In this document: piece by piece, positions 21,176-46,630 of the stretch | Layout: the number at the start of each line of letters is the position of its first letter | Position numbering within the stretch: position 1 is the stretch's first letter | NCBI GenBank assembly: GCA_963758295.1 | Contig: CAVWUU010000004.1 | Span: 1,184,001 to 1,248,000, forward strand | DNA from: Candidatus Eremiobacteria bacterium | GTDB lineage: Bacteria > Vulcanimicrobiota > Vulcanimicrobiia > Vulcanimicrobiales > Vulcanimicrobiaceae | Length of the DNA: 64,000 nucleotides | Direction: 5' to 3' | Position numbers and translations under genes: made by a program | Notes under the pieces: generated by a model | What the model was told of the DNA's origin: nothing | Seen by the model: the letters and a program-made list of their open reading frames with translations, nothing else | The model's database searches: none

Positions 21176-21192
21176 TCCTCAGCCGCGGACCG

Positions 21193-22182: not shown

Positions 22183-22192
22183 GGAGCATCAC

Positions 22193-22513
22193 ATGCCGCT
22201 GACTGCCCCCGCGTTCTACTTGCTGCTTGCGTTGGCCGACGGCGACCGGCACGGCTACGCGATCATCAAGGAGATCGAAGAACTTACCGCGGGCGAAGTG
22301 CAGTTGCTGCCCGGCACGCTTTATCGTCTGATCAAGCAGCTCGTGATGGATCAGTGGATCGCGGAAATCGCCGCCTCGGCGGATGACGATCCGCGCCGCC
22401 GGTACTACCGGCTTACGCGTCAGGGCAGAAAAGCGATCGAAGCCGAAGCCCGGCGTTTGGAAACGATGGTGCAGCTCGCGCGACGCCGCCGGCTCTTGCC
22501 GGCCGGAGCATAA
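22193..22513 (+). CDS. PadR-family transcriptional regulator (paralogue 3)
   Basis: FYLLLALADGDRHGYAIIKEI, PGTLYRL, DPRRRYYRLT; ATG at 22193 after GGAG. Confidence 0.92.
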   Translation: MPLTAPAFYLLLALADGDRHGYAIIKEIEELTAGEVQLLPGTLYRLIKQLVMDQWIAEIAASADDDPRRRYYRLTRQGRKAIEAEARRLETMVQLARRRRLLPAGA

Positions 22514-22516
22514 ACG

Positions 22517-28761: not shown

Positions 28762-29799
28762 TTAAGTTCGACTACTCGCTTCTAAGACGGCGAAGTTAGG
28801 GGTGACGTGGATCTCTCCGACGCGACGCCCAGCACGATTATACACGATGGGATGCGCGAAGGCACGGAGTTCTGTCGCCTGCTCCGCCGTCAAAGCGTCG
28901 AGCCGTTCCAACGCAGCCATGGTCACCGGCGCGCGGCCGCGGCTTGAACCATCTATCACTTTGCTTGCATAGCCCACGCCTCCCGGCACGAACGAAGCCC
29001 CGTGCACGCCTTCGGCACCGGCCTTACAAGCAACCGAACCGCCCGCAACTCGCATCAGCTCCGTATCGAATTCTTTCGTTCCGCTCACATATTCGGGATG
29101 AGAAATCATCGCGTCGCGCACCACCAGCAGCGCCATGGCGTCGCGTTTCTCCAAGCCCTGGAGCGAGGCGAAGCGTGCGAATGCGAGCGCGGCCTTTCGA
29201 AGGGTCGTCGCATAGACGGGAATCCCACACCCGTCAACCCCGAGCGGCCACGACGACGGATCGTCGTCCGACATGCGCGCGCAGAAGGCGAGAATCCGTT
29301 GCTGCACGGGATTTTCCAGATCCAGATACGTTGAGATATCGGCGCCGATGACTTTACACAAGGCCAGAATCCCCGCGTGTTTGCCGGAGCAATTGTTGTG
29401 GACGCGGCTGGGTTCTTCGCCCGCGCGTAAGAGCGCGTGCGATGCTGCTTCGTTGTAGGGAAGATGCGCGCCGCACTGAAGCGCCGACTCATCGAGCCCG
29501 ATCTTTTTCAAAATCGAACGAACGGCTTTCACATGGAACGGTTCGCCGGAATGCGACGCCGCCATAACGGCGATTTCGCGCATATCGAGCCCGAAGGCTT
29601 CACGCACTCCCGCTTCGATGGCGGCCGCCGCAATGAACGGTTTAGCCGTGGAGCGCAGGAACACCGGCGTATCGATTTCGCCGGCGGAGAAAAGGATATC
29701 GCCGCGCGCATTGGACGCGCACGCGGCGACATGATGAATCGACTCGACGAGGCCGCCTCGCGTAACCTCGACGATGGGTTGTCCTTGGAGTTCGTGCAA
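28762..29799 (-). CDS. Asparaginase II (rhizobial AnsA-type)
   Basis: RGGLVES.H, RSTAKP, ASHSGE, HNNCSGKH, DGCG.P, K.GAEGV. Confidence 0.88.
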   Translation of the reverse strand: MHELQGQPIVEVTRGGLVESIHHVAACASNARGDILFSAGEIDTPVFLRSTAKPFIAAAAIEAGVREAFGLDMREIAVMAASHSGEPFHVKAVRSILKKIGLDESALQCGAHLPYNEAASHALLRAGEEPSRVHNNCSGKHAGILALCKVIGADISTYLDLENPVQQRILAFCARMSDDDPSSWPLGVDGCGIPVYATTLRKAALAFARFASLQGLEKRDAMALLVVRDAMISHPEYVSGTKEFDTELMRVAGGSVACKAGAEGVHGASFVPGGVGYASKVIDGSSRGRAPVTMAALERLDALTAEQATELRAFAHPIVYNRAGRRVGEIHVTPNFAVLEASSRT

Positions 29800-29811
29800 C
29801 GGCGGTGTTGG

Positions 29812-30777
29812 TTATCCTACAAGAGCTGGTTCGACGACGACTGCTTCCTGATCGGAGAAGACCGGATTGCTCAGATACCGTTCGCCGGTATCACAGCCAA
29901 TCGTCACAATAGTCTTGCCTTTCGACTCCGGGCGCGCAGCTACTTGCAGCGCCGCCCAGATGTTCGCGCCGGCCGAAATTCCGACCAGCATCCCTTCTTC
30001 GCGCGCCGCCCGCCGTGCCGTTGCTATCGCATCGGCATCCGTGACTCTGATGACTTCGTCGTAGACGCTTGTGTCCAGCACCTTCGGAACGAACCCGGTT
30101 CCCGTGCCCTGAATCTTGTGCGGACCGGGGCTCCCGCCCGAAAGCACCGGCGACCCGTCGGGCTCACCGGCGATGATCTTGATTCCGGGCTTCCGCTCTT
30201 TGAGCACCTCACCGACGCCGCTGATCGTGCCGCCGGTGCCGACCATCGCCACAAAGACGTCGATGGCGCCGTCCGTGTCGCGCCAGATCTCCTCGGCAGT
30301 CGTCCGGCGGTGCACTTCCGGATTCGCCGGATTTTCGAACTGCTGCGGGATGAAGAATTTCGCAGGGTCGGTTGCTTGAATCTCGGTCGCCTTGGCGATG
30401 GCGGCTTTCATGCCGTCGGCCCCCGGCGTGAGAACGACTTGCGCGCCATAGGCCTTCAATAGATTCCGCCGTTCGACGGTCATTGTGTCCGGCATAACGA
30501 GAATGCATTGGTAGCCCTTCGCGGCGGCCACAAAGGCCAGCGCGATGCCGGTGTTGCCGCTCGTCGGCTCCAGGATCTTCATCCCGGGAAGCAGGCGCCC
30601 GTCACGCTCGGCGGCTTCGATCATCGAAACGCCGATACGGTCCTTTACGGAACCGGCGGGATTGAACGACTCCATTTTGACCAGGACAGTTCCCGGCAGT
30701 CCCTTATTGAGACGCGGGATCTTTACGAGGGGCGTATTGCCGAACGTATCGGCAAGGTTTTCGTAAATTCGTGCCAT
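29812..30777 (-). CDS. cysK: Cysteine synthase A
   Basis: [43 protein letters not shown]. Confidence 0.95.
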
Positions 30778-30867
30778 TGTGTTTTCTACAAACCCCTCGT
30801 TCGGCTCAGAGTTTTCGCATCATAACAAGCACCCTGCTCGCCTTGCAAAGGTCGGATTGCCCGGTGC

Positions 30868-30881
30868 CGAACAATCGTTCG
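30868..30881. promoter_or_regulatory. LexA (SOS) box of the Gram-positive type, CGAAC-N4-GTTCG
   Basis: cgaacaatcgttcg, 4 nt upstream of the exonuclease start codon. Confidence 0.8.
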
Positions 30882-30885
30882 CACC

Positions 30886-31911
30886 GTGTTCTCCCTCGCC
30901 GAAAAATCGCTGTATGTCGACGCGCTCGACCTGTGGATCGACAGCATGCGCTCGCGCACGCGCTGTTACGTTTCGCACGGCCATAGCGACCATGCACGCG
31001 AACACGACGTCGTCATAGCCACCCCGAACACGGCGCGCATTTGTCATTCGCGATTCGCGCGGCGGCGCGAGGCCTCGCCGCAGCTATCGCTAATCGCCCG
31101 CTTCGAGCGTCCGCCCGTCGCCGTGCAGTTCGAGGAGCACCATTTCAACGAGCCGTGGCTGGAAGGCGGCCACCGCCTGACGCTCTTCTCCGCGGGGCAC
31201 GTGCTGGGCAGCTCTCAGTTGCTCATCGAAGGCGAACGCGGCCGGTTCGTTTACACCGGCGACTTCAAACTGACGCCGTCGCTCACCGTTGAGCCGCCCG
31301 AAGTCAAAGAATGCGACGTCGTCTTGATGGAGTGCACCTATGGACGCCCGCAGTACGTCTTTCCGGCGCGCGAAGAAGTCGCTGGAGAAATGATCGTCTT
31401 TGCGCGCAGCGCGCTCGAGTCGGGAGCCGTCCCGGTCTTTTTCGCGTATTCGCTCGGTAAAGCGCAAGAAGCCATGGCGATTTTAGGCAAGGCCGGCATT
31501 CCGCTAACCGTGCACGGCGCCGTCGATACGCTGGCGCGCGTTTATCGCGACTGCGGCGTCGAGCTTCCGCCCTTCGAACGCTATGACGCGCTGCGTTTCA
31601 ACACGGATTCTGCTTTGATTTGGCCGCCGGGCGGCAAGGCCTTACCGAAAGCGCTGCGAGGAAAAGAGGTTCGCACGGCCGTTCTTACCGGCTGGTCGCT
31701 CGATCGCGGAGCGCTTTTTCGGTACGGCACGCAACGCGGGTTCGCACTCTCGGATCATGCCGACTATCCGTCGCTTCTTCGTTACATCGAACTAGCGAAG
31801 CCGAAGAAAGTGTTATTGGTGCACGGGTGGCGAGACTTCGTGCACCGATTGCGCGCACAAGGCATCGACGCCGAGTACCTCGAGCACAACCCCCAGCTCT
31901 CGCTCTTCTAA
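30886..31911 (+). CDS. DNA-ligase-associated MBL/beta-CASP exonuclease
   Basis: SHGHSDH, SAGHVLGS, YTGDFK, ECTYG.P, AYSLGKAQ, LSDHADY; C-terminal QLSLF. Confidence 0.88.
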   Translation: MFSLAEKSLYVDALDLWIDSMRSRTRCYVSHGHSDHAREHDVVIATPNTARICHSRFARRREASPQLSLIARFERPPVAVQFEEHHFNEPWLEGGHRLTLFSAGHVLGSSQLLIEGERGRFVYTGDFKLTPSLTVEPPEVKECDVVLMECTYGRPQYVFPAREEVAGEMIVFARSALESGAVPVFFAYSLGKAQEAMAILGKAGIPLTVHGAVDTLARVYRDCGVELPPFERYDALRFNTDSALIWPPGGKALPKALRGKEVRTAVLTGWSLDRGALFRYGTQRGFALSDHADYPSLLRYIELAKPKKVLLVHGWRDFVHRLRAQGIDAEYLEHNPQLSLF

Positions 31912-32300
31912 GAGTCGGGTTTTTTCTTTCCGGCCCTTCGCGCAGCGCGTGCATCGCCGATGTGCGTCACTTTTTCGGAAACGGCCTCGGGTTGCGATCC
32001 CTTGAGCGCCTCTAATTCGTCTTCGCAAAACTCTTTGAAGTAGGAGTCGCGAAGATTATCCAGCCGCATGTCGCTTACCGTGCGCGTGCCGTCGCCGCGG
32101 AAGACCTCCAACGACCGAAGAAACGGGATGTAGCGCGCCATTCTCGACATGCGCCAGTCGGTCAATTTCCACTTGTTGGACGCCATGTATTCGTAGTCGT
32201 ATGGCGGCAGCGTCGACGCCTTTGCGCCGAGCGGCGTTAGCTTCACCCGAAAGCCTTCGCGATTGAAGATTGCCTCTTCGACTTGTTTGATCGTCGCCAT
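31908..32300 (-). CDS. Hypothetical protein
   Basis: 130-aa ORF with typical codon usage, directly downstream of the Lrp/AsnC-domain gene. Confidence 0.7.
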   Translation of the reverse strand: MATIKQVEEAIFNREGFRVKLTPLGAKASTLPPYDYEYMASNKWKLTDWRMSRMARYIPFLRSLEVFRGDGTRTVSDMRLDNLRDSYFKEFCEDELEALKGSQPEAVSEKVTHIGDARAARRAGKKKPDS

Positions 32301-32313
32301 TGTTTATACGCCG

Positions 32314-32592
32314 CTAGTCGACGCCGATGTCCCACAACAGGCCAAGATCTTTTTTGGCGAACGTCTTAAACGCAATTAACGTCTCCGTGCTATCGATTCC
32401 GTCTAGTGCGGCAATTCGCTCGGTCACAAGATCGTTGAGTGCCTCGTGTTCCCTAACGCGCACAACCGCAATCATGTCGAACGGTCCCGCGACCGAGTAG
32501 ACCTCGGCGATGCCCTCGATGGCCAGTAAATCGTCCGCGATCGATTTCAGCCGTGGGCGCTCCACGTTCATGAGTATGAATGCCGTAACCAT
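32314..32592 (-). CDS. Stand-alone Lrp/AsnC ligand-binding (RAM) domain protein
   Basis: MVTAFILM.VE...I.GIAEVYSVAGPFD.IA.VRV...I..LDGI.STETLIAF; no HTH. Confidence 0.88.
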   Translation of the reverse strand: MVTAFILMNVERPRLKSIADDLLAIEGIAEVYSVAGPFDMIAVVRVREHEALNDLVTERIAALDGIDSTETLIAFKTFAKKDLGLLWDIGVD

Positions 32593-32695
32593 GACAGCCG
32601 CTTCGATTTCCGAATCGCTGCCGCCCGCCTGGCGGAAGCCCTGGCGATTGGCGGTTCGGAAGAGTGGAAAAACTCTATAGAGCCGTGGGCTTTCG

Positions 32696-33307
32696 ATGAG
32701 CGCTGGAATGTTCGTACTATCCGTAACGATGGCAGTAGGCATCGCCACCGCGCTGCCGGCCCGCGGCCTGCCGCCCCTCGCGCAGGTTCCGCTCTTCACG
32801 CGCCTCGCGCAAGATCAGGTACGGGGCTATGTGGCGCCGGTCACGCTCAATGTAGCGTTGCATCGATTCATTTTCACCTTTCACTTTCACCTGACCGGCA
32901 CGGTCACCTATTCCGCTCCGGACAAAGTGACTTTCAAGATCCAGCGCGTTCCGCAACAGTATCAGCATTTGTTCAACGACCTCGGAACGCCGTTAACGTG
33001 GCCGCAACTCTACCGGCTTTCCGTCACCGGACGGGTAGAAGTCGACGGGAAGCCCGGGCTTTCTTTGGAGGGCGCCCCGAAGAAGAAAACGGAAGTCGAA
33101 ATCATGGAGCTCCAAACCAGCGACGCCGTTTCTCCCATCCATGCTCAATGGACGCTGAACGACGGCTGGAGCGTTAAGTCGGTGATCACGGAAAAGGCCA
33201 CCGGCGTATACCTTTTCCCCGCAACGGAGATTGCGGATATCGCCGGGCACGGCTATAAAATTCACACCGAAATGACGTATGGCGCCTATGCACTGAGCCC
33301 GCGATGA
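32696..33307 (+). CDS. Exported hypothetical protein (beta-rich)
   Basis: Hydrophobic N-terminus; ATGA overlap with the ligase; start uncertain. Confidence 0.65.
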   Translation: MSAGMFVLSVTMAVGIATALPARGLPPLAQVPLFTRLAQDQVRGYVAPVTLNVALHRFIFTFHFHLTGTVTYSAPDKVTFKIQRVPQQYQHLFNDLGTPLTWPQLYRLSVTGRVEVDGKPGLSLEGAPKKKTEVEIMELQTSDAVSPIHAQWTLNDGWSVKSVITEKATGVYLFPATEIADIAGHGYKIHTEMTYGAYALSPR

Positions 33308-34983
33308 TCGAGTTCGCCCGAACGTGTCAGGCCATCGCTGCTACCGGCAGCAAAATCACGAAGGTTGAAACGCTGGCAGCATATTTTCGCAATCGTAACG
33401 ACGCTGATTTGGAAGCTTCGGCTCGCTTCTTCACGGGAAATCCGTTCGCCGCGCGGGATCAACGGTCGCTGAATCTTGGCGGGCGCGGCATCATAGCCGT
33501 CGCGGCGCGGGTATGGGGAATCACCTCTTCCGAACTTTCCTCCGGCTATCGCGAAACGGGCGATTTAGGAAGCGCGCTCGGGCCGCTCGTGCGTCCGTCC
33601 GGCGAATTGCAGCTTTTCGAGGAAGATTCTCTAACGCCGGCCGTGCTGAAAAGACGCTTTGATGAAATCTCCGCTGCCTCTGGAAAAAACGCCGGTAAAC
33701 GACGCGAAACAATCCTTGAATCCATCCTTCGCAGCTGTACCGACCCGTTCGAAGCGACGTACGTCATAAAAATCGTGACGGGCGATCTGCGCATCGGGCT
33801 TCGCGAAGGGCTCGTGCACGACGCCGTTGCCGCAGCATTCGAAACCACGTACCGCGACGTGCACCGCGCGGTAATGGCAAGCGGCGACATCGGTGAAGTC
33901 GCGGTTGCGGCGAAGCATCGTCGTCTCGATCGGATTCATGTGGCATACGGCTCACCGGTCGGGATCATGCTTGCATCACCGGTTCCCTACGGCGACGCCT
34001 ACAAGGACCTCGCGGGCTACGAGTGGGTCGTGGAAGATAAGTACGACGGGATTCGCGCGCAGGCTCACGTGCACGACGGCCGCGTGCAACTCTTCACGCG
34101 CGCGCTCAATGACGTTACGCATTCGTATCCTGAGATCGTGCGCGCACTGGAAACGCAATCGCGGCGGATGATCCTCGATGGAGAAATAGTCGCATCGCGA
34201 GACGGCAAACTCTTGCCCTTCCGGATTCTTCAAGCCAGACTGCAGCGCAAAGAAATCGATCCGTCGCTGCTCGAGGGCGTCCCGCTAAGCTACGTCATCT
34301 TCGACGCGCTTGCCATCGACGACGAATTCCTGATCGACGAACCGCTGCTCGGTCGCCGCGAACGATTGGCCGCAGCTCTTCAGCCCCATGAAAACGTCAT
34401 CCTCGCTCCCTTTGAGGCGCTGGAAAAAACGGCTCCGGCAGAAGCCGTCAACGAACGTTTCGAAGCGGCGCGGGCTCGCGGAAACGAAGGCCTGATCTTC
34501 AAACGCACCGACGCTCCTTACGTGCCCGGGCGCCGGGGCAAGTGGTGGCTCAAGCTTAAACGCGAGCTGACGACGCTTGACGTTGTTGTCGTTGCCGTGG
34601 AATGGGGGCATGGCAGGCGCGCGAAGGTGCTATCGGATTACACCTTCGCGGTGCAAGACGATGAAGGCAACCTCCTGACGATCGGCAAGGCCTATTCCGG
34701 TTTAACCGACGTGGAAATCGCCGAGATGACGCAGTGGTTTCTCGCGCACCAGCGGGGAAAACGCGGCTACGCCATTTCCGTCGATCCGGAGGTCGTGCTG
34801 GAAGTCGCCTTCGATATCGTCCAGCGCAGCGAACTCCACGAAAGCGGCTACGCGCTACGCTTTCCACGCATCGTGCGCATCCGCGACGACAAACCCGTTT
34901 CGCAAATCAACACGGTGGCCGACGTCGATGAAATCTACCGCGAGATGCTGGCCCGCGAAGGGATCGACGACACGAGCGCTTAG
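33304..34983 (+). CDS. lig: ATP-dependent DNA ligase with N-terminal DNA-binding domain
   Basis: Motif I EDKYDGIR, LDGEIV, FDAL, EGLIFK, WLKLK, LRFPR..R.R.DK. Confidence 0.94.
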   Translation: MIEFARTCQAIAATGSKITKVETLAAYFRNRNDADLEASARFFTGNPFAARDQRSLNLGGRGIIAVAARVWGITSSELSSGYRETGDLGSALGPLVRPSGELQLFEEDSLTPAVLKRRFDEISAASGKNAGKRRETILESILRSCTDPFEATYVIKIVTGDLRIGLREGLVHDAVAAAFETTYRDVHRAVMASGDIGEVAVAAKHRRLDRIHVAYGSPVGIMLASPVPYGDAYKDLAGYEWVVEDKYDGIRAQAHVHDGRVQLFTRALNDVTHSYPEIVRALETQSRRMILDGEIVASRDGKLLPFRILQARLQRKEIDPSLLEGVPLSYVIFDALAIDDEFLIDEPLLGRRERLAAALQPHENVILAPFEALEKTAPAEAVNERFEAARARGNEGLIFKRTDAPYVPGRRGKWWLKLKRELTTLDVVVVAVEWGHGRRAKVLSDYTFAVQDDEGNLLTIGKAYSGLTDVEIAEMTQWFLAHQRGKRGYAISVDPEVVLEVAFDIVQRSELHESGYALRFPRIVRIRDDKPVSQINTVADVDEIYREMLAREGIDDTSA

Positions 34984-34993
34984 GGCACGGCTT

Positions 34994-35314
34994 TTAAACT
35001 CCGAGCTTGCCGAGAATTCCTTGGGCAAATTGCGGTGCGAAATGTTGAATGATTTGCGGATTGTTCTTGATCAACTCCACGACGGCGCCTTTTGCAGCAT
35101 CGGGATTGCTCTGGGCCTGCGTGATGACTCCCTGAATTTGCGAGGCAAGATCGCCTTGTCCGTTTTGCTGCGCGTTTTGCGCCGCGGTTTGCAGATGATC
35201 GGTGAGCTGGCCGGAATCCATGGAGTTCACATGCTCGCTTGCGGCGTCACCGAGTGCCTGTCGATCTACGTTGCCGCTCGTAACTTGTCCGATTAGATTC
35301 TTAAGGTCGTTCAT
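34994..35314 (-). CDS. Gln-rich hypothetical protein
   Basis: 106-aa ORF with a GAGGAG SD. Confidence 0.75.
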   Translation of the reverse strand: MNDLKNLIGQVTSGNVDRQALGDAASEHVNSMDSGQLTDHLQTAAQNAQQNGQGDLASQIQGVITQAQSNPDAAKGAVVELIKNNPQIIQHFAPQFAQGILGKLGV

Positions 35315-35392: not shown

Positions 35393-35626
35393 CTAGCGAG
35401 GTTTCTCGCGGCCACGTCCTTCACGGATTCGCCGTGCGCGCGCGGCCGCATCGAATCCACTCACCGGGCGACGCTGCGTGAGTGCCGCTCGTAACCGTGA
35501 AACGCCGACCACCAAGATCAATAGAATCGCGGCAAGTGCGAAGAACAACCGCGATCTCGTGGGCAGCGCTGCTGCGCTCGCGAGAATGACCGCGAGCAGC
35601 GCTGCAAGCGTCTCCCAGCGACGCAC
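35393..35626 (-). CDS. Small membrane protein
   Basis: Two hydrophobic segments and a basic tail; 6 nt downstream of the DUF885 gene. Confidence 0.6.
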   Translation of the reverse strand: MRRWETLAALLAVILASAAALPTRSRLFFALAAILLILVVGVSRLRAALTQRRPVSGFDAAARARRIREGRGREKPR

Positions 35627-35632
35627 GAAGTC

Positions 35633-37357
35633 TTAGAGCGGCTTCCCGTCGTCCTGCGCGCCGAGCAGCAGCGGACGAATGTACGGAATCGGCGGATCTC
35701 CGTGGGCGAGAAACGCATCGTGAAACTTCTGAATCGTGAATGCGGGGCCAAGCTTTTTCTTGTAGTCTTCGCGCAGCTTCAGGATCATGAGCTTGCCGAG
35801 GGTGTAGTATCCGTACATCGGGTCCTGCGTTCCGCGCAACGATTCGCCCACCGCGATTTGCGGCGTTTGGAAGCATTCATCGGTGAACGCCTTCTCTGCT
35901 TGTTGGATCGTCATGCCTTGCGTATGAAGTTTGACGCCGACCACGTAACGGCAATTGCGAAGGAGCGCTTCATCCAACTGCGCCAGTCGTACTTTGGGGT
36001 CGCCGTTGCCCCAGCCTTCGTCCACCATCATCTGCTCGTCATAGTGCGCCCAGCCTTCGGCAAATTCCGAAGTCTGCGAAAGCATGCGAGTGAGGCTTAG
36101 TTTGAGATGCCGGTCGATCGCAAAATTCGTGAAGTGACCGGGATAGACTTCGTGCAGCGAAATGATCGGAAATTCGTAGTCGTTGAATTCCGCCAGAAAA
36201 TCTTCTTTCTGCTTGGCGGTCCACGCCGGATCAACGGGGGTAACGTAGTAGTACGCTTGCGTGGCGACCGTCTCGAGCGGTCCGGGAGAGTCTTCGGCAG
36301 CTTCCGTCGTCGCGCGTTCGAACGGCGGCGTATCGATGACCCTGATGTTTGCGTCGGCCGGAAGAGTCACCAAGTGTTTCGCTTCTACGAAAGCGCGAAG
36401 TTGCACCAGATCGCTCTGCGCCTTCGCGCGCAGGTTTTCCGGCGTGGGATGTTTCTTCGTGATCGAGAGGTAGACGTCGAGCGGCTTGGCCTTCGGATCG
36501 ATTTGCTTCGCGACGGCGATGAACCGCGCGCGTGTTTCGTCGAGCGCCCGCTGGCCGATTGCAAGATATTGGGAGACGGGCATGTTCAAGCCGTCTTCGT
36601 ACTGCAGCCGCTTCTCGTACGCCGCCGTGCCGATTGCGAACGTGCCGGAAGGCTTCAGTGTCTTGATCCACGCCGCATAAGAACCCACCGCCTTAGCCGC
36701 GGCCGCGTTCGCGCTCTTGAGCTGCGCTTGAAGATTCGCATCCTTCACATCGGAGAACGCTTCCGGCACGCTCTCCGTGAAGAAGCTCACCGAACCGGCC
36801 GCGTCTTCTGCCGCAATGCGTAGCGTTACAGCATCGACCGATGTAATGTTTTGCTTCGCTTGCGCGAGCATCGGCGGAATCTGCCGCTCCCGCGATACGG
36901 CATACTTGAGGCGCGTAGCCGCCGGCGCGTACTCGCGCTCCATTATGGTGAATATCGCGCCGCTTGCGATCTGCACGTAGAGGTCGGGATTGTGCCGCCA
37001 CGACGCGAGCGTTTGCGTTTGCAATAAGTCGTCGCGAAGCTGATTTTCCAGCAACTGCGCGTCGATCTTGACTTCGGGCGACAGAGCCGCCCGGTCGATC
37101 CCCTTTAATTTCGCGAGATACGCGTTGTCGCGCGCGATGCCGGCCGCGAACGCTTTCGATGAATAGTCGCCGAGCTCGGCGTCGTACGCGTGATATCCGC
37201 GCGACGTGGCGTCGATCGGATCCAGTTTGAAACCGCTGTACCAATAGTTATGCGCGAGCGCGTTGAACTGCGCGTCGGCAGAGCCGCCCGGCGCGGGCGC
37301 AGCCGCGCCTAGCAAAACAGCCGTCAGCGCGGCGCTAAACAAACGAAGCCTCAGCAT
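35633..37357 (-). CDS. DUF885 family exported protein
   Basis: Signal peptide; HEVYPGH, FAEGWAHY.E, YGYYTLGKL.I.KLR, FHD.FL. Confidence 0.9.
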   Translation of the reverse strand: MLRLRLFSAALTAVLLGAAAPAPGGSADAQFNALAHNYWYSGFKLDPIDATSRGYHAYDAELGDYSSKAFAAGIARDNAYLAKLKGIDRAALSPEVKIDAQLLENQLRDDLLQTQTLASWRHNPDLYVQIASGAIFTIMEREYAPAATRLKYAVSRERQIPPMLAQAKQNITSVDAVTLRIAAEDAAGSVSFFTESVPEAFSDVKDANLQAQLKSANAAAAKAVGSYAAWIKTLKPSGTFAIGTAAYEKRLQYEDGLNMPVSQYLAIGQRALDETRARFIAVAKQIDPKAKPLDVYLSITKKHPTPENLRAKAQSDLVQLRAFVEAKHLVTLPADANIRVIDTPPFERATTEAAEDSPGPLETVATQAYYYVTPVDPAWTAKQKEDFLAEFNDYEFPIISLHEVYPGHFTNFAIDRHLKLSLTRMLSQTSEFAEGWAHYDEQMMVDEGWGNGDPKVRLAQLDEALLRNCRYVVGVKLHTQGMTIQQAEKAFTDECFQTPQIAVGESLRGTQDPMYGYYTLGKLMILKLREDYKKKLGPAFTIQKFHDAFLAHGDPPIPYIRPLLLGAQDDGKPL

Positions 37358-37393
37358 ACGCCGAGGCTTCGCTCTAATGGTCTTATGCCCTCG

Positions 37394-38254
37394 CTATTTA
37401 TTTTTGAAGCGGGCGACGCGCTTTTCGTTGTAAGCGGCGATGCCTTCTTTTGCGTCCTCGCTCTTGAAGAGCAGCGACTGCAGTTCGCGTTCCAGCGCGA
37501 GCGCGTCTTGCAGCGGAAGCTCCGCGCCGGTCTGAACGCTGCGCTTGATGTGCCCCACGGCCATCGGCGCCTTGTTCGGCGAACAGAATTGACGTGCATA
37601 GTCGGTGATCTGCTCGCGGAACTCGTCGGCCGAGCCTTCGAAAATGTCGCTGATTACGCCCCAGTCCATCGCCTGCTCGTAGCTGAACGTTTTGCCGCTA
37701 ACCATCAGTTCGAGCGCGCGCGATTTACCGACGAGGCGCGCGAGGCGTTGCGTTCCGCCCGTTCCCGGCAAAACGCCGAGCGCTACTTCCGGCAAACCCA
37801 TCTTGCCCGCGTCTTTGCGCGCGATGCGAATGTCCGCCGCCATCGCAATTTCCATGCCGCCGCCTACGCAGTGGCCGTTGAGCGCTGCGATAACAAGCTT
37901 CGGCGTCTGCTCGAGACGGCTCAGCGTCTCGTTCGCATGCAGGCAGAACATGTACTTAAATTCAGGCGTGACCGAGTTGAGCATGTTGATGTTCGCGCCC
38001 GCGGAGAAAAATTTTTCCCCTGCGCCCGTGAGCACGATGACTTCCACTTCGCCGTCGAAACGAGCGTCGAGAATCGCTTCGTCGAGCTGGCGCATCATTT
38101 CGTGCGTGTACGTGTTCGCCGGCGGATCGTTCATTTCGATGAAGCCGATGTGGCCGTCTTTCCAGTAATTGATAACGCGCTTGCCGTCCAAGGGCCGCGC
38201 TTCGCGCCCGAAAGGCGTCTGTTGAACCGTAGTTCCGTTCGCAGTCGTGGTCAT
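37394..38254 (-). CDS. Crotonase-fold protein resembling the catalytic N-terminal domain of BoxC (2,3-epoxybenzoyl-CoA dihydrolase); single domain
   Basis: FSAGANINML..FKYMFCLHANET, ALNGHCVGGGMEIA, GLPEVALGVLPGTGG; start MTTTANG at 38254. Confidence 0.8.
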   Translation of the reverse strand: MTTTANGTTVQQTPFGREARPLDGKRVINYWKDGHIGFIEMNDPPANTYTHEMMRQLDEAILDARFDGEVEVIVLTGAGEKFFSAGANINMLNSVTPEFKYMFCLHANETLSRLEQTPKLVIAALNGHCVGGGMEIAMAADIRIARKDAGKMGLPEVALGVLPGTGGTQRLARLVGKSRALELMVSGKTFSYEQAMDWGVISDIFEGSADEFREQITDYARQFCSPNKAPMAVGHIKRSVQTGAELPLQDALALERELQSLLFKSEDAKEGIAAYNEKRVARFKNK

Positions 38255-38300
38255 TACAAATCCCCTAGCTTGAGTGGCGCTTAGCTTCGCATAGCGAGCC

Positions 38301-39428
38301 TTAGTTCGCGGACAAGTTCCCTTTTGGCGAAATCCAATCCGGATTCTTGAAGTGAGCGGAAAGTACCGAGTCGTCGGCAGGCGTCGGCAGCACGGACGGC
38401 ATGTATGCATTCCACTCGTCTTCGGTTAGCTTGCGGCCGTCGACCGTCCAATACTGGCCCGAATATTGACCGATCTTGCGATTGAATCGCATGTCAGGGA
38501 CGTAGAGCTTCGTTTCGCTCGCGTTGACTTCGTTGACGCGATTGACCGTTTGCTCGACTTCCGCGTAGAACTGATCGCGGGCGCGTTCATTCAAGTGTTC
38601 TTTGTCGACGCTATCGCCGGTCTTATCTTCGTCGACGCGGCCTTTGATGCCCCAGGTATACGCCCACTGTGCCGAACCCGAGTGATCGGTCCCAAAAAGA
38701 TCGAGCGAGCCGGAGATCCATTTGTTGTAGTACTTCTGCTGTAACTCTACCGGAATGATGCCGGCTTTCGCGATGCGACGAAGGCCCGTGATCCCGGTGC
38801 CCATGTGGAACGATTCTTCCCGCAGCATCGGCCCCATGGACGAGGCCAGCGGCGCGAAACTCGAGTGCGAAAGCATCGTCAATTGGAACTTGCCGTCGCG
38901 ATCCATGAAGTTCGTGTACGCGAAGAAGTCCAGCCAATGCGTAACGTCGTCGTTGAATGCATTGAGCAGCCGATTCTTCTTGCCGAACGCGCGGCGTTCA
39001 AGCATTTTCTGCGCTTCGATTTTGCCTTCACTGCCGAAATGATTGACGAGCAGATGGCACATCTGAAAGCCGTGCCGCGTCTCTTCGACCATGATGCGAA
39101 CGAGCGCGGCAAGGTCGTATTCCGAGGGCGCATTATTCACGAGAAAGCGTTGCTGCTCGTTCGAAGCAAATTCCGTGTCGCCCTGATACACGATCATGTT
39201 GAGCACTGCATCGCGCATTCGCTGGTCCGGAATCTCGCGCACCTTCTCCCAGCGCCGCTCACCCTTGAAATCGCCGAAGAAGATCTCGGGAGTGCGCAAC
39301 TCGCCGTACTTGGCTTCGAAGGTGTAACCGGGGACGAACCGGTCGATCAGCTCCCGATCGAGTCCGATGTCGTGTTGCCAGTCCTTGAGCAGGTCGAGCC
39401 AATCGTCAAAGGTGGAAATTCGCGCCAT
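38301..39428 (-). CDS. boxB: Di-iron ring epoxidase, BoxB-like (benzoyl-CoA 2,3-epoxidase family), short form
   Basis: QGDTEFASNEQQ, APSEYDL, VEETRH, DRDGKFQL, REESFH, LDLFG follow BoxB motifs; 375 aa. Confidence 0.75.
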   Translation of the reverse strand: MARISTFDDWLDLLKDWQHDIGLDRELIDRFVPGYTFEAKYGELRTPEIFFGDFKGERRWEKVREIPDQRMRDAVLNMIVYQGDTEFASNEQQRFLVNNAPSEYDLAALVRIMVEETRHGFQMCHLLVNHFGSEGKIEAQKMLERRAFGKKNRLLNAFNDDVTHWLDFFAYTNFMDRDGKFQLTMLSHSSFAPLASSMGPMLREESFHMGTGITGLRRIAKAGIIPVELQQKYYNKWISGSLDLFGTDHSGSAQWAYTWGIKGRVDEDKTGDSVDKEHLNERARDQFYAEVEQTVNRVNEVNASETKLYVPDMRFNRKIGQYSGQYWTVDGRKLTEDEWNAYMPSVLPTPADDSVLSAHFKNPDWISPKGNLSAN

Positions 39429-39459
39429 GGATTAAGGCCTCCGAAAGCCGGCTCGTCGT

Positions 39460-39498
39460 TATGACGGATTTAATCATTTCCGTGAGAATACCGTCATA
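39460..39498. promoter_or_regulatory. Candidate PaaX operator TATGACGG-N23-CCGTCATA
   Basis: Perfect 8-bp inverted repeat between the divergent boxB-like gene and paaX; overlaps a minus-strand TAGTAT -10 (TTGACA at 39521-39526). Confidence 0.7.
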
Positions 39499-39527
39499 CT
39501 ACCTCATCGCCTTGGGAGAGTGTCAAC

Positions 39528-40361
39528 CTGGACAGGCAAATCACGCGGCCGAACTCGTTCATCTTCACGCTCTACGGAGACTTAGTACATCGCCATGTGA
39601 CGGACGGTTCGCTATGGATCGGCAGCTTGATCGCGCTCATGGCGCCGTTCGGCCTCTCGGAAGCCGCCGTCCGTCAGGCCGTTTCGCGAATGTCCCGCCA
39701 GGGCTGGCTAGTCGCCCGGAAGACGGGCAACCGTGCATTCTACGCCGTGACGGAACGCGGCCGCCGCCGCATCTTGGGTTTGAGCCCGCGCATCTACGGC
39801 CCGGTCGTCGAGTGGGACGGCCGGTGGCGTATGCTCACCTACAGCATCGCTGAAGCGCAGCGCGACCGCCGGGACCGATTACGGAAAGAACTAACCGTTC
39901 TGGGCTGGGCGCCGCTCTCCGCATCGACCTGGATTTCGCCTTCCGATGCGATCGACGACATTAGGGAAATCGCCGGCGCGTCGGATCTGCTGCCGAACGT
40001 CGACTTCTTCGTTGCCGAGTATGCCGGGCCGGCGTCCGACCGCGAGTTGCTTACAAAATGCTGGGATTTAGATGCGATCGCGCGCGCTTACGGCGATTTC
40101 ATTCGCGCCTATGAACCGCGCCTGGGGCGCGAACGCACCGAAGGATCGCTCAGCGATGAAGAGGCTTTTGTCGAACGGCTTTGGCTGGTTCACAACTATC
40201 GAAAGTTTACGTACGTCGATCCGGGACTTCCGAGCGCGCTGCTGCCCGCTCATTGGCCCGGCACGACCGCCGCGTCGCTCTTTCGCGAATACTATGCCGC
40301 CATTGACGCGAAATCGCTGCGGTTTTTCACAGAAGCAACGGGGCAGGCGGTAACGGCCTAA
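39528..40361 (+). CDS. paaX: PaaX-family transcriptional repressor; probable CTG start at 39528 (ORF track starts at GTG 39597)
   Basis: RPNSFIFTLYGD, LWIGSLI, AVRQAVSRM, WDGRW, DPGLP.ALLP.HWPG. Confidence 0.9.
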   Translation: MDRQITRPNSFIFTLYGDLVHRHVTDGSLWIGSLIALMAPFGLSEAAVRQAVSRMSRQGWLVARKTGNRAFYAVTERGRRRILGLSPRIYGPVVEWDGRWRMLTYSIAEAQRDRRDRLRKELTVLGWAPLSASTWISPSDAIDDIREIAGASDLLPNVDFFVAEYAGPASDRELLTKCWDLDAIARAYGDFIRAYEPRLGRERTEGSLSDEEAFVERLWLVHNYRKFTYVDPGLPSALLPAHWPGTTAASLFREYYAAIDAKSLRFFTEATGQAVTA

Positions 40362-40380
40362 CTGAGGAAGTGCGGGCGCC

Positions 40381-40791
40381 ATGCCCAAACGGTTTTTCTT
40401 TGCGTGCGCCATGGCGTCGGCCGCGCTCGCTGCATGCAGCGGCTATAACTCGAACAACATTTACGGACCGCCGTCCACGCCGACGCCGCTTCCGTCTTAC
40501 TCGCCGAATCCGGCGATTACGACGGCGAACGTCACGTTTAGCGTCGCCGGAAACACGATTGCGAATCAGCCGATCGCCATGTCAACTCCGGACGCGGCAG
40601 GACAACCCGGCACGACGATTACGACGATTAACACCAACAGCACCGGCGTCGCCGCGTTCAGCGGACTTACCGACACGACGACGTACTGCTGGACGACGAT
40701 GTACACGCCCGCATCCGCGCAACCCCAAGAATACAGCGCCTGCGTTCCGCAGCAGTTCTGGGGAAGCGGCGTTCATCTCGGAAATCCGTAA
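40381..40791 (+). CDS. Ser/Thr/Pro-rich lipoprotein with an Ig-like domain
   Basis: Lipobox LAAC; TNSTGVA.FSGL motif. Confidence 0.7.
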   Translation: MPKRFFFACAMASAALAACSGYNSNNIYGPPSTPTPLPSYSPNPAITTANVTFSVAGNTIANQPIAMSTPDAAGQPGTTITTINTNSTGVAAFSGLTDTTTYCWTTMYTPASAQPQEYSACVPQQFWGSGVHLGNP

Positions 40792-40812
40792 GCTTCGTTT
40801 CGCGTGAATCGC

Positions 40813-40852
40813 AAAAAAAGAGCGCCTCGCATCTGCGAGGCGCTCTTTCTTC
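40813..40852. terminator. Bidirectional rho-independent terminator
   Basis: aaaaaaagagcgcctcgc-atct-gcgaggcgctctttctt between convergent genes. Confidence 0.88.
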
Positions 40853-40867
40853 ATCGCCCGGAGGCTG

Positions 40868-43480
40868 TTAGTGGGCGTGCCACTCGAGCTGGAGGCGAAT
40901 CGTACGCGGCAACGCCGGAATGATCGACGTGGGGTACGGCACGTACTGGCCCTTGTTGTTCTCTCCCGTCAGCGGAATGCCGACGTTCGGGAGCACGAGA
41001 TTGTTGTACGCGTTGCTGTTGAACAGGTTGTCAGCCGAGACTTGCAGGTTGAGCACCTTGTTCACGGGGTGACGGTACGTCGCGTTGAAGAGCACGAGCG
41101 GCGCCTGGTTGTAGGAGTTGTTCTTGCCCTCGAAGTCTGCACCGAGCGCGAAGTACGTACGGTCGCGGAACGTGTACTGGAGTTGACCGTAAGCCTTCAG
41201 GTACGGAATGCAAACCGCTGCAGCGGTACCGCACTGTTGCACGCCGTTCGCGGGCACCGAGCCCGCCGGCGAGAACGCCGCGACCGGAATGCCGTTGATG
41301 ATCGAGCGCTGGAGCGAACCCGTTACGTAGTAGCCCAGACCGAAGTTCGGCTGGAACGCGTACTTGAGGGTCGCGACTTGCGCCGCCAGGTTCGCCGCGT
41401 TGATCGGCATGTTGGTGTAGACGTAGTTCGGATTGTCGACTTCCGCCGTAAGCGTCTCGAAGACGTTACTCACGTTCATGTTGAGGTAGTCGAAGCTCAG
41501 AACGCTGCCGTCGTGCAGGCGCTTGTCGACGCCGAGGCCCCACGAGTGGGCGACTTCCGGCGATAAGAACGGGTTCTTCTCCACGAGCGTGGTGCCGAGG
41601 GGCGCCGTGGCCGTCGGCTGCTGGATGTAGGCAGAACCGCTGACGTTACCGGCGTACGGGAAGTTTACCGACGAACCGAACGACGCGCGGTACGAGAGCC
41701 CGCCCGACGGCGAGAACGTGAGTGCAACGTGCGGGTCGAGGTGGTTAACGCTTCGGCCGAGTTTCACCGTGTTTACGGTGGACGAGCCGGGAGCCGAAAC
41801 GACCGACTGCCAGCCGTCGAGCTGCCAGTTGGTGTCGTAAAGACCGGCGGCGAGCGTCGTCTTCGGATTGAGCGCGAAGTTGCCCGTAAGCGAGAACGTA
41901 TTGGTACGCGCGATGGTGTCGGGAACGACGACCGGAAGCGCGCCGCCCGCAACGATGGAACCGGCTTGCGCGTACGTTCCGTCGCTGTGGTAGTCGTACG
42001 TTGCCGTCACGTCGTTGTCGCCGAAGGGATGCACGAACGACACGGTCGTTCCATGCAGTTTGTCGAGTTCGAACGTGGTGTACGGCGACTGCATCACTGC
42101 CGCGCCGGCCGCCGTGTAGTGATCCGGGTAGAGCGATTCGCCGCCGCCGTCGACGTCACGGAGAACCGATCCGGCGTACGGACGTACAAGCAACGTGTTG
42201 TTGCCGATCGCCGTACGGAACTGGCCTTCCCAAATCGGCTGGTCGTTGAAGACGTTGGATCCTGGATAGAAGATGTATCCGTTGATCGTCTTGCCGACGT
42301 ATTGGCCGAAGTTCGGGTTGGTGCACTGCATGGAACCGCTGATGGTCGCGCAAGGCACGATCGTCATGTTTCCCGCGTACTGCCCGTACGACGTCGCCTG
42401 CGGGTAGAAACCCGACTGCGAACCGACGTAGGCGAGTTCGAACGACGTGGCGTTCGAGAAGTCGTACTTAGCTTTCAGCACTTCGCCTTTTTGGAAAAGC
42501 GGGGCGCTGAGATTGCCGCACGATTGAATGATGCCGGTGCTTCCCGGGAGGTTCGTCAGCGCGGACTTGACCGGCTTGACGATACAGCCTTGCGACCCTT
42601 GATACGGACCGTTTTCGCTGTTGTAACCGAGCGCCATCACGTACGAGAACTTCTGGCCCAGTTTACCGGTCGTCAAGAAATCCGAGTACTGTGCTGCGTA
42701 GTTGTCCATACCGACGACGAAACGCGTTTCCGGACGGCCGTTGTAAGACGGCGTGACGAAGTTCGCGGTACCGCCGATGGCGCTGCCCGCAAACGGCGTC
42801 GTGTTGCCCGGACCGATTTCCGTTTCGATGCCCGAGAGCATGAACGAGTTGAAATACTGCGTGATCCACGAACCGTAGCGGCCGGTCGAGAGCGGATGTC
42901 CGTCGAGGAGCACCTGCGTCTCGTACGGCTGCGCGCCGGCGAGCGAGATCGACGTGTTGGGCGCACTGCTCGTGCGCTGAATGTTCAGGCCCGGAACCTG
43001 CTGCAGCGCTTCGTTGATCTGCGGCGAGCCGAGATCTTGAAGGTGCTGCGCGCTCACGATCGTTTCTGCGGTCGGGCTCGTGTTGATCGAGCTATGCATA
43101 GACGTGTGAACTGTTGCAATCGTGCGCAACGACGTAAGGTCGGGCTGTTGCAGCACGACGTTTTCGGCAAGGCTGCCGCCGCTCGTCAGAGCGATGTCGT
43201 GCGCTTCGGCGGAAAGATATCCGCCTTTATTGACCTGGAGTTCGTAGATCCCCGGGGCGAGATTCGTGAAACCGAACGCGCCGTTGGCATCCGAGGTCGT
43301 GACTTGACGGTTTGCACCGGTCAGCACGATCCGCGCGCCCACGACGGGCGCTCCCGAGGCCGAATGAACTATGCCGGTAATTGCAGCGTTCTTCGCAACC
43401 GTGACCGCCTCGTCCGAACGAGCGGCGGCCGGGGATACGGCAAGAAGCACGGCAAGCACCAGAGCGATTCGAGAAAACAC
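40868..43480 (-). CDS. TonB-dependent receptor with N-terminal carboxypeptidase-regulatory-like domain
   Basis: Signal peptide, ITGIV..ASGAPV.GA, plug (EALQQVPG, TQVLLDGHP), SADNLFN, C-terminal PRTIRLQLEW. Confidence 0.88.
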   Translation of the reverse strand: MFSRIALVLAVLLAVSPAAARSDEAVTVAKNAAITGIVHSASGAPVVGARIVLTGANRQVTTSDANGAFGFTNLAPGIYELQVNKGGYLSAEAHDIALTSGGSLAENVVLQQPDLTSLRTIATVHTSMHSSINTSPTAETIVSAQHLQDLGSPQINEALQQVPGLNIQRTSSAPNTSISLAGAQPYETQVLLDGHPLSTGRYGSWITQYFNSFMLSGIETEIGPGNTTPFAGSAIGGTANFVTPSYNGRPETRFVVGMDNYAAQYSDFLTTGKLGQKFSYVMALGYNSENGPYQGSQGCIVKPVKSALTNLPGSTGIIQSCGNLSAPLFQKGEVLKAKYDFSNATSFELAYVGSQSGFYPQATSYGQYAGNMTIVPCATISGSMQCTNPNFGQYVGKTINGYIFYPGSNVFNDQPIWEGQFRTAIGNNTLLVRPYAGSVLRDVDGGGESLYPDHYTAAGAAVMQSPYTTFELDKLHGTTVSFVHPFGDNDVTATYDYHSDGTYAQAGSIVAGGALPVVVPDTIARTNTFSLTGNFALNPKTTLAAGLYDTNWQLDGWQSVVSAPGSSTVNTVKLGRSVNHLDPHVALTFSPSGGLSYRASFGSSVNFPYAGNVSGSAYIQQPTATAPLGTTLVEKNPFLSPEVAHSWGLGVDKRLHDGSVLSFDYLNMNVSNVFETLTAEVDNPNYVYTNMPINAANLAAQVATLKYAFQPNFGLGYYVTGSLQRSIINGIPVAAFSPAGSVPANGVQQCGTAAAVCIPYLKAYGQLQYTFRDRTYFALGADFEGKNNSYNQAPLVLFNATYRHPVNKVLNLQVSADNLFNSNAYNNLVLPNVGIPLTGENNKGQYVPYPTSIIPALPRTIRLQLEWHAH

Positions 43481-43637: not shown

Positions 43638-43961
43638 TCAGTCCTCGTCTTCGTGTAGATGAAGGTGGCAGCCGTCTTCGGCATCCGAAAGGACGTCGCG
43701 GGCTTCGCTGAGGACGTGTTGCGACAAAGGCTGCTCGGGCGGCGTAATGCTTCCCTCAGATGCAAGGAACGCGGATTCGCTCCAATCTTCCCATGTCTCG
43801 AGCGGTTCGCCGTCCATTTCGGCGGGAAACCGGACGCAAAAGCCCTGGTCTACGTGAACGCCGACGACCATGACGCGCGTGCCGCGCGGAAAGTACGTTC
43901 CGTCCTTCCACAGCGTGCCGTACGTAGTGTCGTAGTGCTGGCCGATGCGTAGCGCTTCTAT
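43638..43961 (-). CDS. Acidic hypothetical protein with a C-terminal CHLHLH motif; possible ATA start at 43961 (ORF track starts at ATG 43871)
   Basis: Open frame extends to just after the aldehyde dehydrogenase stop. Confidence 0.6.
   Translation of the reverse strand: MEALRIGQHYDTTYGTLWKDGTYFPRGTRVMVVGVHVDQGFCVRFPAEMDGEPLETWEDWSESAFLASEGSITPPEQPLSQHVLSEARDVLSDAEDGCHLHLHEDED

Positions 43962-45467: not shown

Positions 45468-46630
<1,163 letters not shown>

Follow-up and report, generated by a model that had tools for sequence, protein, structure and literature searches.

How might a bacterium epoxidise and open the aromatic ring of a coenzyme A (CoA) thioester with one BoxB-type oxygenase and one single-domain crotonase, their genes standing beside a divergent gene for a PaaX-type regulator and with no reductase gene next to them? 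This question is raised by a 64,000-nucleotide stretch of DNA from Candidatus Eremiobacteria bacterium (GenBank assembly GCA_963758295.1, contig CAVWUU010000004.1, positions 1,184,001 to 1,248,000 of the forward strand), the whole of which is referred to here as the window. We use the label BoxBs for its compact BoxB-type protein and ECHo for the partner crotonase. Aerobic ring cleavage by way of CoA epoxides is known from two systems, Box and Paa, which have been studied mainly in Proteobacteria. BoxBs and ECHo form a real, intact and strongly conserved module, and the family matches of both proteins are far beyond chance; judged by its sequence relatives, the module is widespread in soil bacteria and probably serves the breakdown of aromatic acids. 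For the more specific reading, in which the pair epoxidises an aryl-CoA, most likely benzoyl-CoA, and hydrolyses its ring under the control of the PaaX-like repressor, we see an even chance.

The genome is a metagenome-assembled genome (MAG) of 3.03 Mb in 6 contigs and is 82% complete, and every genome-wide absence given below is bounded by that completeness. The nearest relatives of its proteins are labelled Eremiobacterota or Vulcanimicrobiota (Baltobacteraceae). Relatives of BoxBs are encoded in at least 589 stretches of one-genome-per-species contigs, of which 80 were kept as related loci, 50 of them close (BoxBs identity of at least 60%) and 30 distant.

The open reading frames (ORFs) of a preliminary description of this DNA were found where it had placed them, and the BoxB-type motifs from which it had recognised BoxBs are all present (QGDTEFASNEQQ, EETRH, DRDGKFQL and EESFH). 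On the BoxB profile TIGR03225 (benzo_boxB) the protein scores 227.1 bits (E 4e-67) in three stretches, below the curated cut-off of 499.1; genuine Paraburkholderia BoxB, taken as a control, reaches 917.4 bits and is 37% identical to BoxBs over 387 residues, and the solved BoxB 3PER is matched at E 1.1e-55. The PaaA model (TIGR02156) gives 37.3 bits against a cut-off of 280, so BoxBs is not a PaaA. The predicted structure tells the same story: an AlphaFold (AF2) model built on a 23-sequence alignment has a predicted local distance difference test score (pLDDT) of 90.2, and Foldseek matches it to BoxB 3Q1G/3PM5 with a query-normalised template modelling (TM) score of 0.88-0.90 (E ~1e-24), as compared to only 0.53-0.56 for PaaA. 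When checked against PaaA and PaaC (PF05138), as had been proposed, BoxBs thus sides with BoxB and not with PaaA (37.3 bits; TM ~0.55).

For the active site we relied on the residue list for 3PM5 in PMC5489048, with positions counted along the HMMER alignment to 3PER. In that source, the di-iron ligands of BoxB are Glu120, Glu150, His153, Asp211, Glu240 and His243, and the residues of the benzoyl pocket are Gln116, Thr119, Ser123, Phe193, Phe203/206 and Thr210. Read against this list, the six iron ligands of BoxBs are E86, E116, H119, D176, E205 and H208, and they are kept in 23/23 family members from several phyla. The equivalents of the benzoyl-contacting residues Gln116, Thr119, Ser123 and Phe193 are likewise retained in 23/23 members, and that of Phe203 in 19/23.

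BoxBs is about 100 residues shorter than canonical BoxB. The segments that it lacks are two at the N-terminus, a loop of ~17 residues after the fourth ligand helix, an insert of ~20-40 residues and the C-terminal tail. A tree of 26 rows gathers the seven canonical BoxB proteins into one group (support 83/98) and leaves the compact forms outside it, with an unresolved backbone. Profile, tree and structure match therefore agree with the earlier view of a BoxB-type di-iron enzyme that is shorter than, and outside, the canonical BoxB clade. The suggestion that it is also ancestral was not borne out, because with the backbone unresolved and a PaaA/PaaC root too distant, which of the two forms is older is not decidable. 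On its sequence, BoxBs appears to belong to an uncharacterised sister group of BoxB, and its module may be likened to the upper Box pathway.

The gene for ECHo follows that for BoxBs on the common strand after a gap of 46 bases. Its reading frame is open up to 38410 (37394-38410(-), 338 aa), and an N-terminus conserved among relatives is found only for the 286-aa form starting at 38254. ECHo had been described as a half-size BoxC on the strength of the motifs FSAGANINML..K..FC...NET and LPEVALGVLPGTGG. Both motifs are present, but ECHo is not a half or truncated BoxC, for which we took two crotonase domains and ~550 aa as the architecture for comparison: the ECH_1 profile covers it at positions 5-250 of 251, as expected of a complete crotonase of ordinary length. 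Its best NCBIfam model is the generic hydratase NF005803, at 202 bits (cut-off 313); lower-scoring models include PaaF at 175 bits (below its cut-off), NF046063 ("oxepin-CoA hydrolase, alternative type") at 119.8 bits (cut-off 300) and the BoxC model TIGR03222 at 85.7 bits, over profile positions 44-235 only (cut-off 712.3); genuine BoxC, run as a control, scores 987-1001 bits on the last of these. ECHo is nevertheless the top TIGR03222 match in the genome, the next ones reaching 45.6 and 38 bits.

ECHo aligns with the N-terminal domain of genuine BoxC over 194 residues at 35% identity (E 5e-26), and FC...NET and LPEV.LGVLPGTGG are common to the two. Among ECHo orthologues E135 and E156, both of them glutamates of the hydratase catalytic type, and the motif FCLHANETL are invariant (23/23), as is LPEV.LGVLPGTGG (23/23). 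Two catalytic glutamates stand at the hydratase positions of the BoxC N-terminal domain in the account of PMC4498308; they are also a feature of ordinary hydratases. The best match of ECHo in the PDB is 2PPY (241.7 bits), a structural genomics entry named "enoyl-CoA hydratase" from Geobacillus kaustophilus, whose record assigns no function; it has the FCL..NETL motif and probably belongs to the same crotonase subfamily, and the closest solved relatives also include the 3-hydroxypropionyl-CoA dehydratase 5ZAI.

Three trees group ECHo with BoxC. Nine ECHo proteins together with the BoxC domains split from 13 other crotonases with support 86/85, from 17 others with support 95/96, and from the same number with support 97/95 when the C-terminal domain of BoxC was left out. 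The set of 17 comprises PaaF and PaaG of E. coli, three paralogues encoded by the present genome, six proteins that were the best matches in Box-carrying genomes and, from the related loci, six secondary crotonases; as compared to the first tree, the second drops two long-branch paralogues of the genome itself (at C4 486k and 1133k) and adds the six crotonases from Box-carrying genomes, and the wrong-frame rows L181, L184 and L185 are excluded from the second and third. With regard to whether ECHo would cluster with generic crotonases, the answer is accordingly divided: the trees place it with the BoxC domains and away from PaaG and the others, whereas the ranking by similarity favours ordinary crotonases. 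ECHo may be the nearest single-domain relative of BoxC.

An ECHo orthologue of at least 60% identity occurs in 65 of the 80 related loci, at no more than 400 nt from BoxBs in 50; among the close loci it is present in 47/50, and the contigs of the other three end right after BoxBs. Conservation extends across phyla, where ECHo is 61-70% identical at loci whose BoxBs is 54-58% identical. In a sample of 121 genomes from the phylum, BoxB-family matches (E <= 1e-20) turn up in 64 and ECHo orthologues (E <= 1e-50) in 60, and 58 of the latter genomes hold both. The six genomes with a BoxB-family match and no ECHo comprise five with a canonical-type BoxB only and one that is 64% complete. Since the sampled genomes are related and not independent, we take this co-occurrence as a pattern and not as a statistic. 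Together with adjacency and the grouping with BoxC domains in the trees, it upholds the proposal that the crotonase is a specific partner of the BoxB-type gene. In the characterised Box pathway, BoxC is purified together with BoxB and lifts the inhibition of BoxB by its product (PMC4498308). Complex prediction for BoxBs with ECHo, run on two alignments, gave scores of 0.28 and 0.12 (mark 0.32) and carries no weight either way.

Two further observations concern the partners. Predicted single proteins joining a BoxB-like part to an ECHo-type crotonase (P0277, 618 aa, and P0281, 605 aa) each form a single-member cluster and may for that reason be gene-calling merges. In families f20 and f11 (e.g., genomes G050, G098 and G008) an ECHo orthologue of 56-69% identity occurs with only a distant BoxB-like gene (32-37%, frames of 413-499 aa), which in some of these genomes lies ~80 kb away; the ECHo-type crotonase subfamily may thus pair with more than one BoxB-type lineage.

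The arrangement is by no means confined to this stretch. Among 8000 candidates scored, 4743 proteins match BoxBs at E <= 0.001, as do 874 representatives of clusters at 50% identity, and the best 120 of the 4743 are 79-91% identical and 364-394 aa long. The species genomes concerned span several phyla, with labels among the 80 kept loci that include Eremiobacterota, Acidobacteriota, Chloroflexia, Armatimonadetes, Ignavibacteria, Zixibacteria, Krumholzibacteriota and Bacteroidota. The public names given to these relatives are "phenylacetic acid catabolic protein" or "benzoyl-CoA 2,3-epoxidase subunit B", and in the literature that we searched nothing turned up on compact BoxB proteins from these phyla.

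The divergent gene encodes a protein that passes all three PaaX Pfam domains, scores 239.5 bits on TIGR02277 (PaaX), just under the cut-off of 264.55, and is 32% identical to E. coli PaaX. A PaaX gene stands beside BoxBs in 40/50 close loci and in 0/30 distant ones. The 168-bp intergenic region between paaX and boxBs holds an inverted repeat, TATGACGG-N23-CCGTCATA, at 39460-39498. A search that tolerated up to 2 mismatches in each arm and spacers of 22-24 found the repeat in 24 of 40 paaX-boxBs intergenic regions, as compared to 63 of 8000 shuffles. The repeat precedes the start of BoxBs by 50-95 bases in 23 of these regions and by 166 in the other one (L035). An upstream scan with spacers of 18-28 nt found it in none of 8 loci that have no adjacent paaX. 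A sigma-70 promoter scan of 35500-40900 found nothing; by eye, TTGACA, a 19-nt spacer and TAGTAT, which overlap the left arm of the repeat, could represent a promoter. We consider the repeat a candidate PaaX operator. PaaX as the local regulator, proposed from the divergent gene, is thus consistent both with the domains found and with a conserved inverted repeat in the shared promoter region.

Searches for the electron donor were negative throughout. The cluster and its immediate surroundings contain no reductase gene, as had been described, and tblastn with BoxA, PaaE, NuoE and NuoF as queries found none within 8 kb of BoxBs in any of the 80 loci. The search of the genome for boxA and paaE that had been called for found neither: for BoxA the family search gave only ferredoxin-domain matches and tblastn with Paraburkholderia BoxA was negative, and for PaaE both the family search and tblastn with E. 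coli PaaE were negative. The single NuoF gene of the genome lies within a respiratory nuoD-E-F-G operon, which leaves no spare NuoEF, and none of 14 long forms of BoxB-like proteins that were checked has a reductase domain fused to it.

Sibling genomes place this result in a wider context. Five of them (G011, G053, G105, G055 and G099; loci L188-L192) hold a genuine two-domain BoxC (828-900 bits) beside a canonical-type BoxB, and four of the five loci add a benzoate-CoA ligase-type gene and a regulator of the BoxR type, with helix-turn-helix and shikimate-kinase-like parts, neither of which was seen in the stretch from G105. BoxA is absent from all five genomes, which are 96-99% complete, so independence from BoxA seems general in this group. 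In the canonical Box cluster of G055 a flavodoxin gene lies upstream of, and beside, the ligase gene; neither the present genome nor the other loci yielded a homologue of this flavodoxin. An active compact pair would also raise the question of where BoxB-type enzymes obtain their electrons when there is no BoxA, a question that extends to the genuine BoxB/BoxC clusters of sibling genera.

The features of the cluster are collected in the table below.

Features of the BoxBs-ECHo locus and its catabolic neighbourhood (positions within the window)
Feature	Position	Strand	Basis
BoxBs, compact BoxB-type di-iron oxygenase, 375 aa	38301..39428	-	TIGR03225 match, predicted fold, iron ligands
ECHo, single-domain crotonase, 286 aa	37394..38254	-	ECH_1, 182 bits
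PaaX-like repressor, 254 aa	39597..40361	+	PaaX, PaaX_M and PaaX_C domains; divergent from BoxBs
Candidate PaaX operator, inverted repeat	39460..39498		paaX/boxBs intergenic region; function inferred
Small acidic ORF, ~107 aa	43638..43961	-	Conserved in related loci; directly after aldehyde dehydrogenase
NAD(P)-dependent aldehyde dehydrogenase, ORF of 545 aa	43976..45613	-	Aldedh, 580 bits; likely start near 45466 by inference
PaaJ-like thiolase, two frames in assembly	45468..46627	-	Thiolase_C and Thiolase_N on overlapping ORFs 45468-46172 and 46034-46627
PaaH-like double-length 3-hydroxyacyl-CoA dehydrogenase, 529 aa	46631..48220	-	3HCDH_N and 3HCDH
TonB-dependent receptor between the two halves of the cluster	40868..43480	-	CarboxypepD_reg, Plug and beta-barrel domains
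DUF885 protein downstream of ECHo	35633..37357	-	DUF885, 315 bits

To call the module "minimal", as the preliminary description did, overstates the case: the aldehyde dehydrogenase, the thiolase and the PaaH-like dehydrogenase are part of the same conserved neighbourhood. The aldehyde dehydrogenase is generic, its best NCBIfam models being BADH, HpaE and StyD, all below their cut-offs; it scores 480-486 bits on phenylacetaldehyde dehydrogenase models, also below cut-offs, and its top PDB matches are generic aldehyde and betaine-aldehyde dehydrogenases, 5GTK being the best. A homologue is present in 38 of the 80 loci (32/50 close, 6/30 distant). The thiolase, 53-54% identical to E. coli PaaJ, occurs in 32/50 close and 0/30 distant loci; its halves are in different frames here and, by their coordinates, in one frame in locus L009, and the split may reflect a true frameshift or a fault of the assembly in a MAG of 6 contigs. 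The dehydrogenase, found in 35/50 close and 0/30 distant loci, is 43-46% identical to E. coli PaaH and scores 426.5 bits on NF006124 and 372.2 bits on TIGR02279 (PaaH), both below cut-offs.

The small acidic ORF ends in a Cys/His-rich C-terminal DGCHLHLHEDE and has ATA where relatives carry ATG or GTG. It is kept in 33 related loci, L028 adding a partial match, and in every case it stands on the side towards BoxBs; in loci that have no paaX it stands immediately upstream of BoxBs, its end lying 14 to 63 nt before the BoxBs start (L044, L041). No Pfam family matches it, an Atlas search returned only hypothetical proteins of Vulcanimicrobiota, and fold prediction gave no usable fold (pLDDT 46.8); the protein is restricted to this lineage. 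An ORF of 97 aa read from the other strand (43659-43952) is probably not genuine.

The TonB-dependent receptor and DUF885 genes occur in few loci (6/50 and 5/50 close, respectively, and 0/30 distant for each) and are on that account variable members; the DUF885 gene is probably unrelated to the module. Directly after paaX, an ORF of 145 aa at 40370-40807 (+) has no match in Pfam or NCBIfam and no tblastn match in the 80 loci, and it is probably not a gene. The flanks (window 29437-35300 and 48274-52214) are syntenic among relatives, one holding genes for an AsnC-type regulator, an ATP-dependent DNA ligase and a protein with a metallo-beta-lactamase fold and RMMBL domain, the other genes for a Nudix hydrolase and an Lhr-type helicase; their identity and synteny suggest a DNA-repair neighbourhood that surrounds the catabolic genes. 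Farther away, at 15768-25120 of the window, two PadR-type regulator genes lie beside genes for MacB/FtsX-type ABC exporters, an HlyD-type adaptor and an ATPase.

How, then, might the parts work together? In the reading to which we give an even chance, BoxBs would bind an aromatic acyl-CoA, most likely benzoyl-CoA, and use O2 and two electrons to form a ring epoxide, and ECHo would play the part that BoxC has in the known pathway, accepting the reactive epoxide or oxepin and hydrating it so that the ring opens. The semialdehyde so formed would be oxidised by the aldehyde dehydrogenase, and the PaaH-like dehydrogenase and PaaJ-like thiolase would complete beta-oxidation-like steps leading to central metabolites. 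The PaaX-like repressor would control the divergent promoter by way of the inverted repeat and would probably be released by an aryl-CoA, and the electrons would come from a donor encoded elsewhere, other than BoxA, PaaE or a spare NuoEF module.

Clues to the substrate come in part from relatives. In a complete Eremiobacterota chromosome (L034) ECHo is followed, after 4 bases, by a gene of the benzoate-CoA ligase family (571 bits, cut-off 375), and at 8 of the 30 distant loci a trio of the 4-hydroxybenzoyl-CoA reductase (Hcr) type lies 1-3 kb downstream of BoxBs, the alpha subunit reaching 1006 bits at L060 (cut-off 994.55) and the beta and gamma subunits staying below their cut-offs. Among 38 genomes of family f1 with a BoxB-type gene, 5 have the canonical form only and 33 the compact form only; that a genus has one or the other, the canonical cluster or the compact pair, suggests equivalent roles.

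Several observations weigh against benzoyl-CoA epoxidation and ring opening by this pair. BoxBs falls well below the TIGR03225 cut-off (227 vs 499 bits), and, on the residue list of PMC5489048, its pocket is changed systematically, the equivalent of Phe206 being Tyr in 20/23 members and that of Thr210 Met, Val or Ile in 23/23 and never Thr. For ECHo, the trees contain few crotonase rows and their BoxC branches are long, generic hydratase models outscore BoxC (202 vs 85.7 bits), and in each of three Box-carrying genomes the top match to ECHo is an ordinary crotonase of 260-280 aa (116-130 bits), BoxC reaching 74-80; being nearer to ordinary hydratases by plain similarity, ECHo may simply be a hydratase. 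The regulator is of the PaaX and not the BoxR type, the donor searches were all negative, and BoxD-type 2VRO (B. xenovorans) is not among the best 60 of 181 PDB matches of the aldehyde dehydrogenase. The search for aroyl-CoA ligases found no benzoate-CoA ligase above the cut-off in this genome (best 329.7 bits against 375, at a salicylyl-CoA locus); most of the genomes with close BoxBs relatives also score just under it, and in the phylum sample the ligase profile does not track BoxBs, genomes that have no BoxBs often having a ligase. Finally, genome G055 holds the canonical BoxB/BoxC cluster as well as the compact pair, and the presence of both systems argues for different substrates.

The ligase match just mentioned belongs to a second aromatic-CoA locus of the genome, outside the window at C4:482700-492450 (locus L177, 8719-18443). 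It holds genes for the AMP-ligase (329.7 bits), an acyl-CoA dehydrogenase, a PaaG-like crotonase, a short-chain dehydrogenase/reductase and a 776-aa protein, and a glycosyltransferase-type gene. The 776-aa protein passes the model for the bifunctional salicylyl-CoA 5-hydroxylase/oxidoreductase (1291.7 bits, cut-off 1078).

The alternative that survives best keeps the chemistry and changes the substrate, to phenylacetyl-CoA or to a substituted or heteroaromatic acyl-CoA (e.g., hydroxy- or aminobenzoyl-CoA); we regard it as possible, if rather doubtful. For instance, BoxBs might replace the multi-subunit Paa epoxidase and ECHo might act like a crotonase-type oxepin-CoA hydrolase or PaaG. This would suit the PaaX-like regulator, since PaaX of known systems senses phenylacetyl-CoA, and it would also suit the PaaH-like and PaaJ-like genes, the phenylacetaldehyde dehydrogenase scores of the aldehyde dehydrogenase (480-486 bits, below cut-offs), the match of ECHo to NF046063, the two pocket changes (Phe206 to Tyr; Thr210 to Met, Val or Ile), the two systems of G055, and a genome in which no PaaA-E was found, tblastn finding none of PaaB, PaaC and PaaD. 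PaaK, however, was also searched for and not found in the genome, and BoxBs retains most of the residues holding the thioester and ring of the benzoyl group. The benzoate-CoA ligase family and Hcr-type genes beside the pair in relatives and the division of the f1 genomes between canonical (5) and compact (33) types speak for benzoyl-CoA or a role equivalent to that of Box. As regards phenylacetyl-CoA itself, canonical BoxB does not accept it (PMC4498308).

Alternatively, and in our judgement improbably, no ring would be epoxidised at all: BoxBs might hydroxylate or desaturate an aliphatic or alicyclic acyl-CoA, with ECHo as an ordinary hydratase in a specialised beta-oxidation and with fatty-acid-type enzymes as neighbours. 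The generic hydratase models that lead the list for ECHo and a solved relative such as 5ZAI would fit this, as would an aldehyde dehydrogenase, thiolase and dehydrogenase that all stay below specific cut-offs, a cluster that here contains no aryl-CoA ligase, and a conservation (79-91% identity among the best 120 relatives) that is also compatible with a core metabolic role. Yet the residues of BoxB that line the aromatic-ring pocket are kept, in overall fold and in the layout of the substrate channel BoxBs agrees with BoxB and not with other di-iron enzymes, aromatic-CoA genes are linked to the pair in relatives, and the trees draw ECHo to BoxC. A last reading, in which a Box pathway has broken down and left these genes behind, decaying or inactive, is very hard to credit: a thiolase in two frames, a small ORF with no standard start codon and the failure to find a reductase would be in keeping with decay, but BoxBs and ECHo are both intact, share 79-91% and 61-91% identity with their relatives and are invariant in their catalytic residues, synteny holds across phyla, and in a MAG of 6 contigs the frameshift may stem from the assembly. 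The small probability left over goes to such decay or to something unforeseen.

Returning to aryl-CoA epoxidation by BoxBs and ring opening by ECHo, we speculate on a fuller picture, to be taken as tentative and on balance unlikely to hold in all its parts. The pair would be a self-contained epoxidation and ring-opening module that draws on a general electron carrier and has no dedicated reductase; ECHo would be a pre-duplication relative of BoxC; the module would be the main O2-dependent route for benzoate-type acids in Eremiobacterota, Acidobacteriota, Chloroflexota and Armatimonadota; and the small protein with the Cys/His tail may assist the oxygenase as a lineage-specific helper. More broadly, the findings point to a third, compact form of the CoA-epoxide route with a different set of partners. 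If active, it would assign a route of aromatic acid degradation to abundant uncultured soil bacteria in which these proteins are auto-annotated only as "phenylacetic acid catabolic protein", and it would offer a simpler, two-protein system for the study of ring epoxidation and opening.

Among known systems, the Paa pathway of E. coli K-12, with PaaABCDE, PaaG and PaaZ, would share the overall logic, from a CoA ester through di-iron epoxidation, a crotonase acting on the epoxide or oxepin and aldehyde oxidation to the PaaH and PaaJ steps, and it too has a PaaX-family repressor and an inverted repeat with a long spacer in the promoter region. The repeat sequence here differs from that of the E. 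coli operator, the two PaaX proteins are 32% identical, and the oxygenase of the PaaABCDE system is PaaA, where here it is of the BoxB type. The BoxB of the BoxAB oxygenase (Azoarcus/Aromatoleum evansii; 3PER, 3PM5 and 3Q1G) is longer, served by BoxA and accompanied by a BoxR-type regulator, as compared to a compact BoxBs with an altered pocket, a PaaX-like regulator and no BoxA found. BoxBs has the same fold, the same six ligands and the Gln, Thr, Ser and Phe contacts to the benzoyl group, and it shares the single-subunit architecture that dispenses with PaaB/PaaC-type partners. BoxC consists of two fused domains and ECHo of one domain of normal length with its own C-terminal helices; the two have in common the crotonase fold, the pair of glutamates at the hydratase positions, shared motifs, a grouping in the trees and a gene that stands beside one of the BoxB type.

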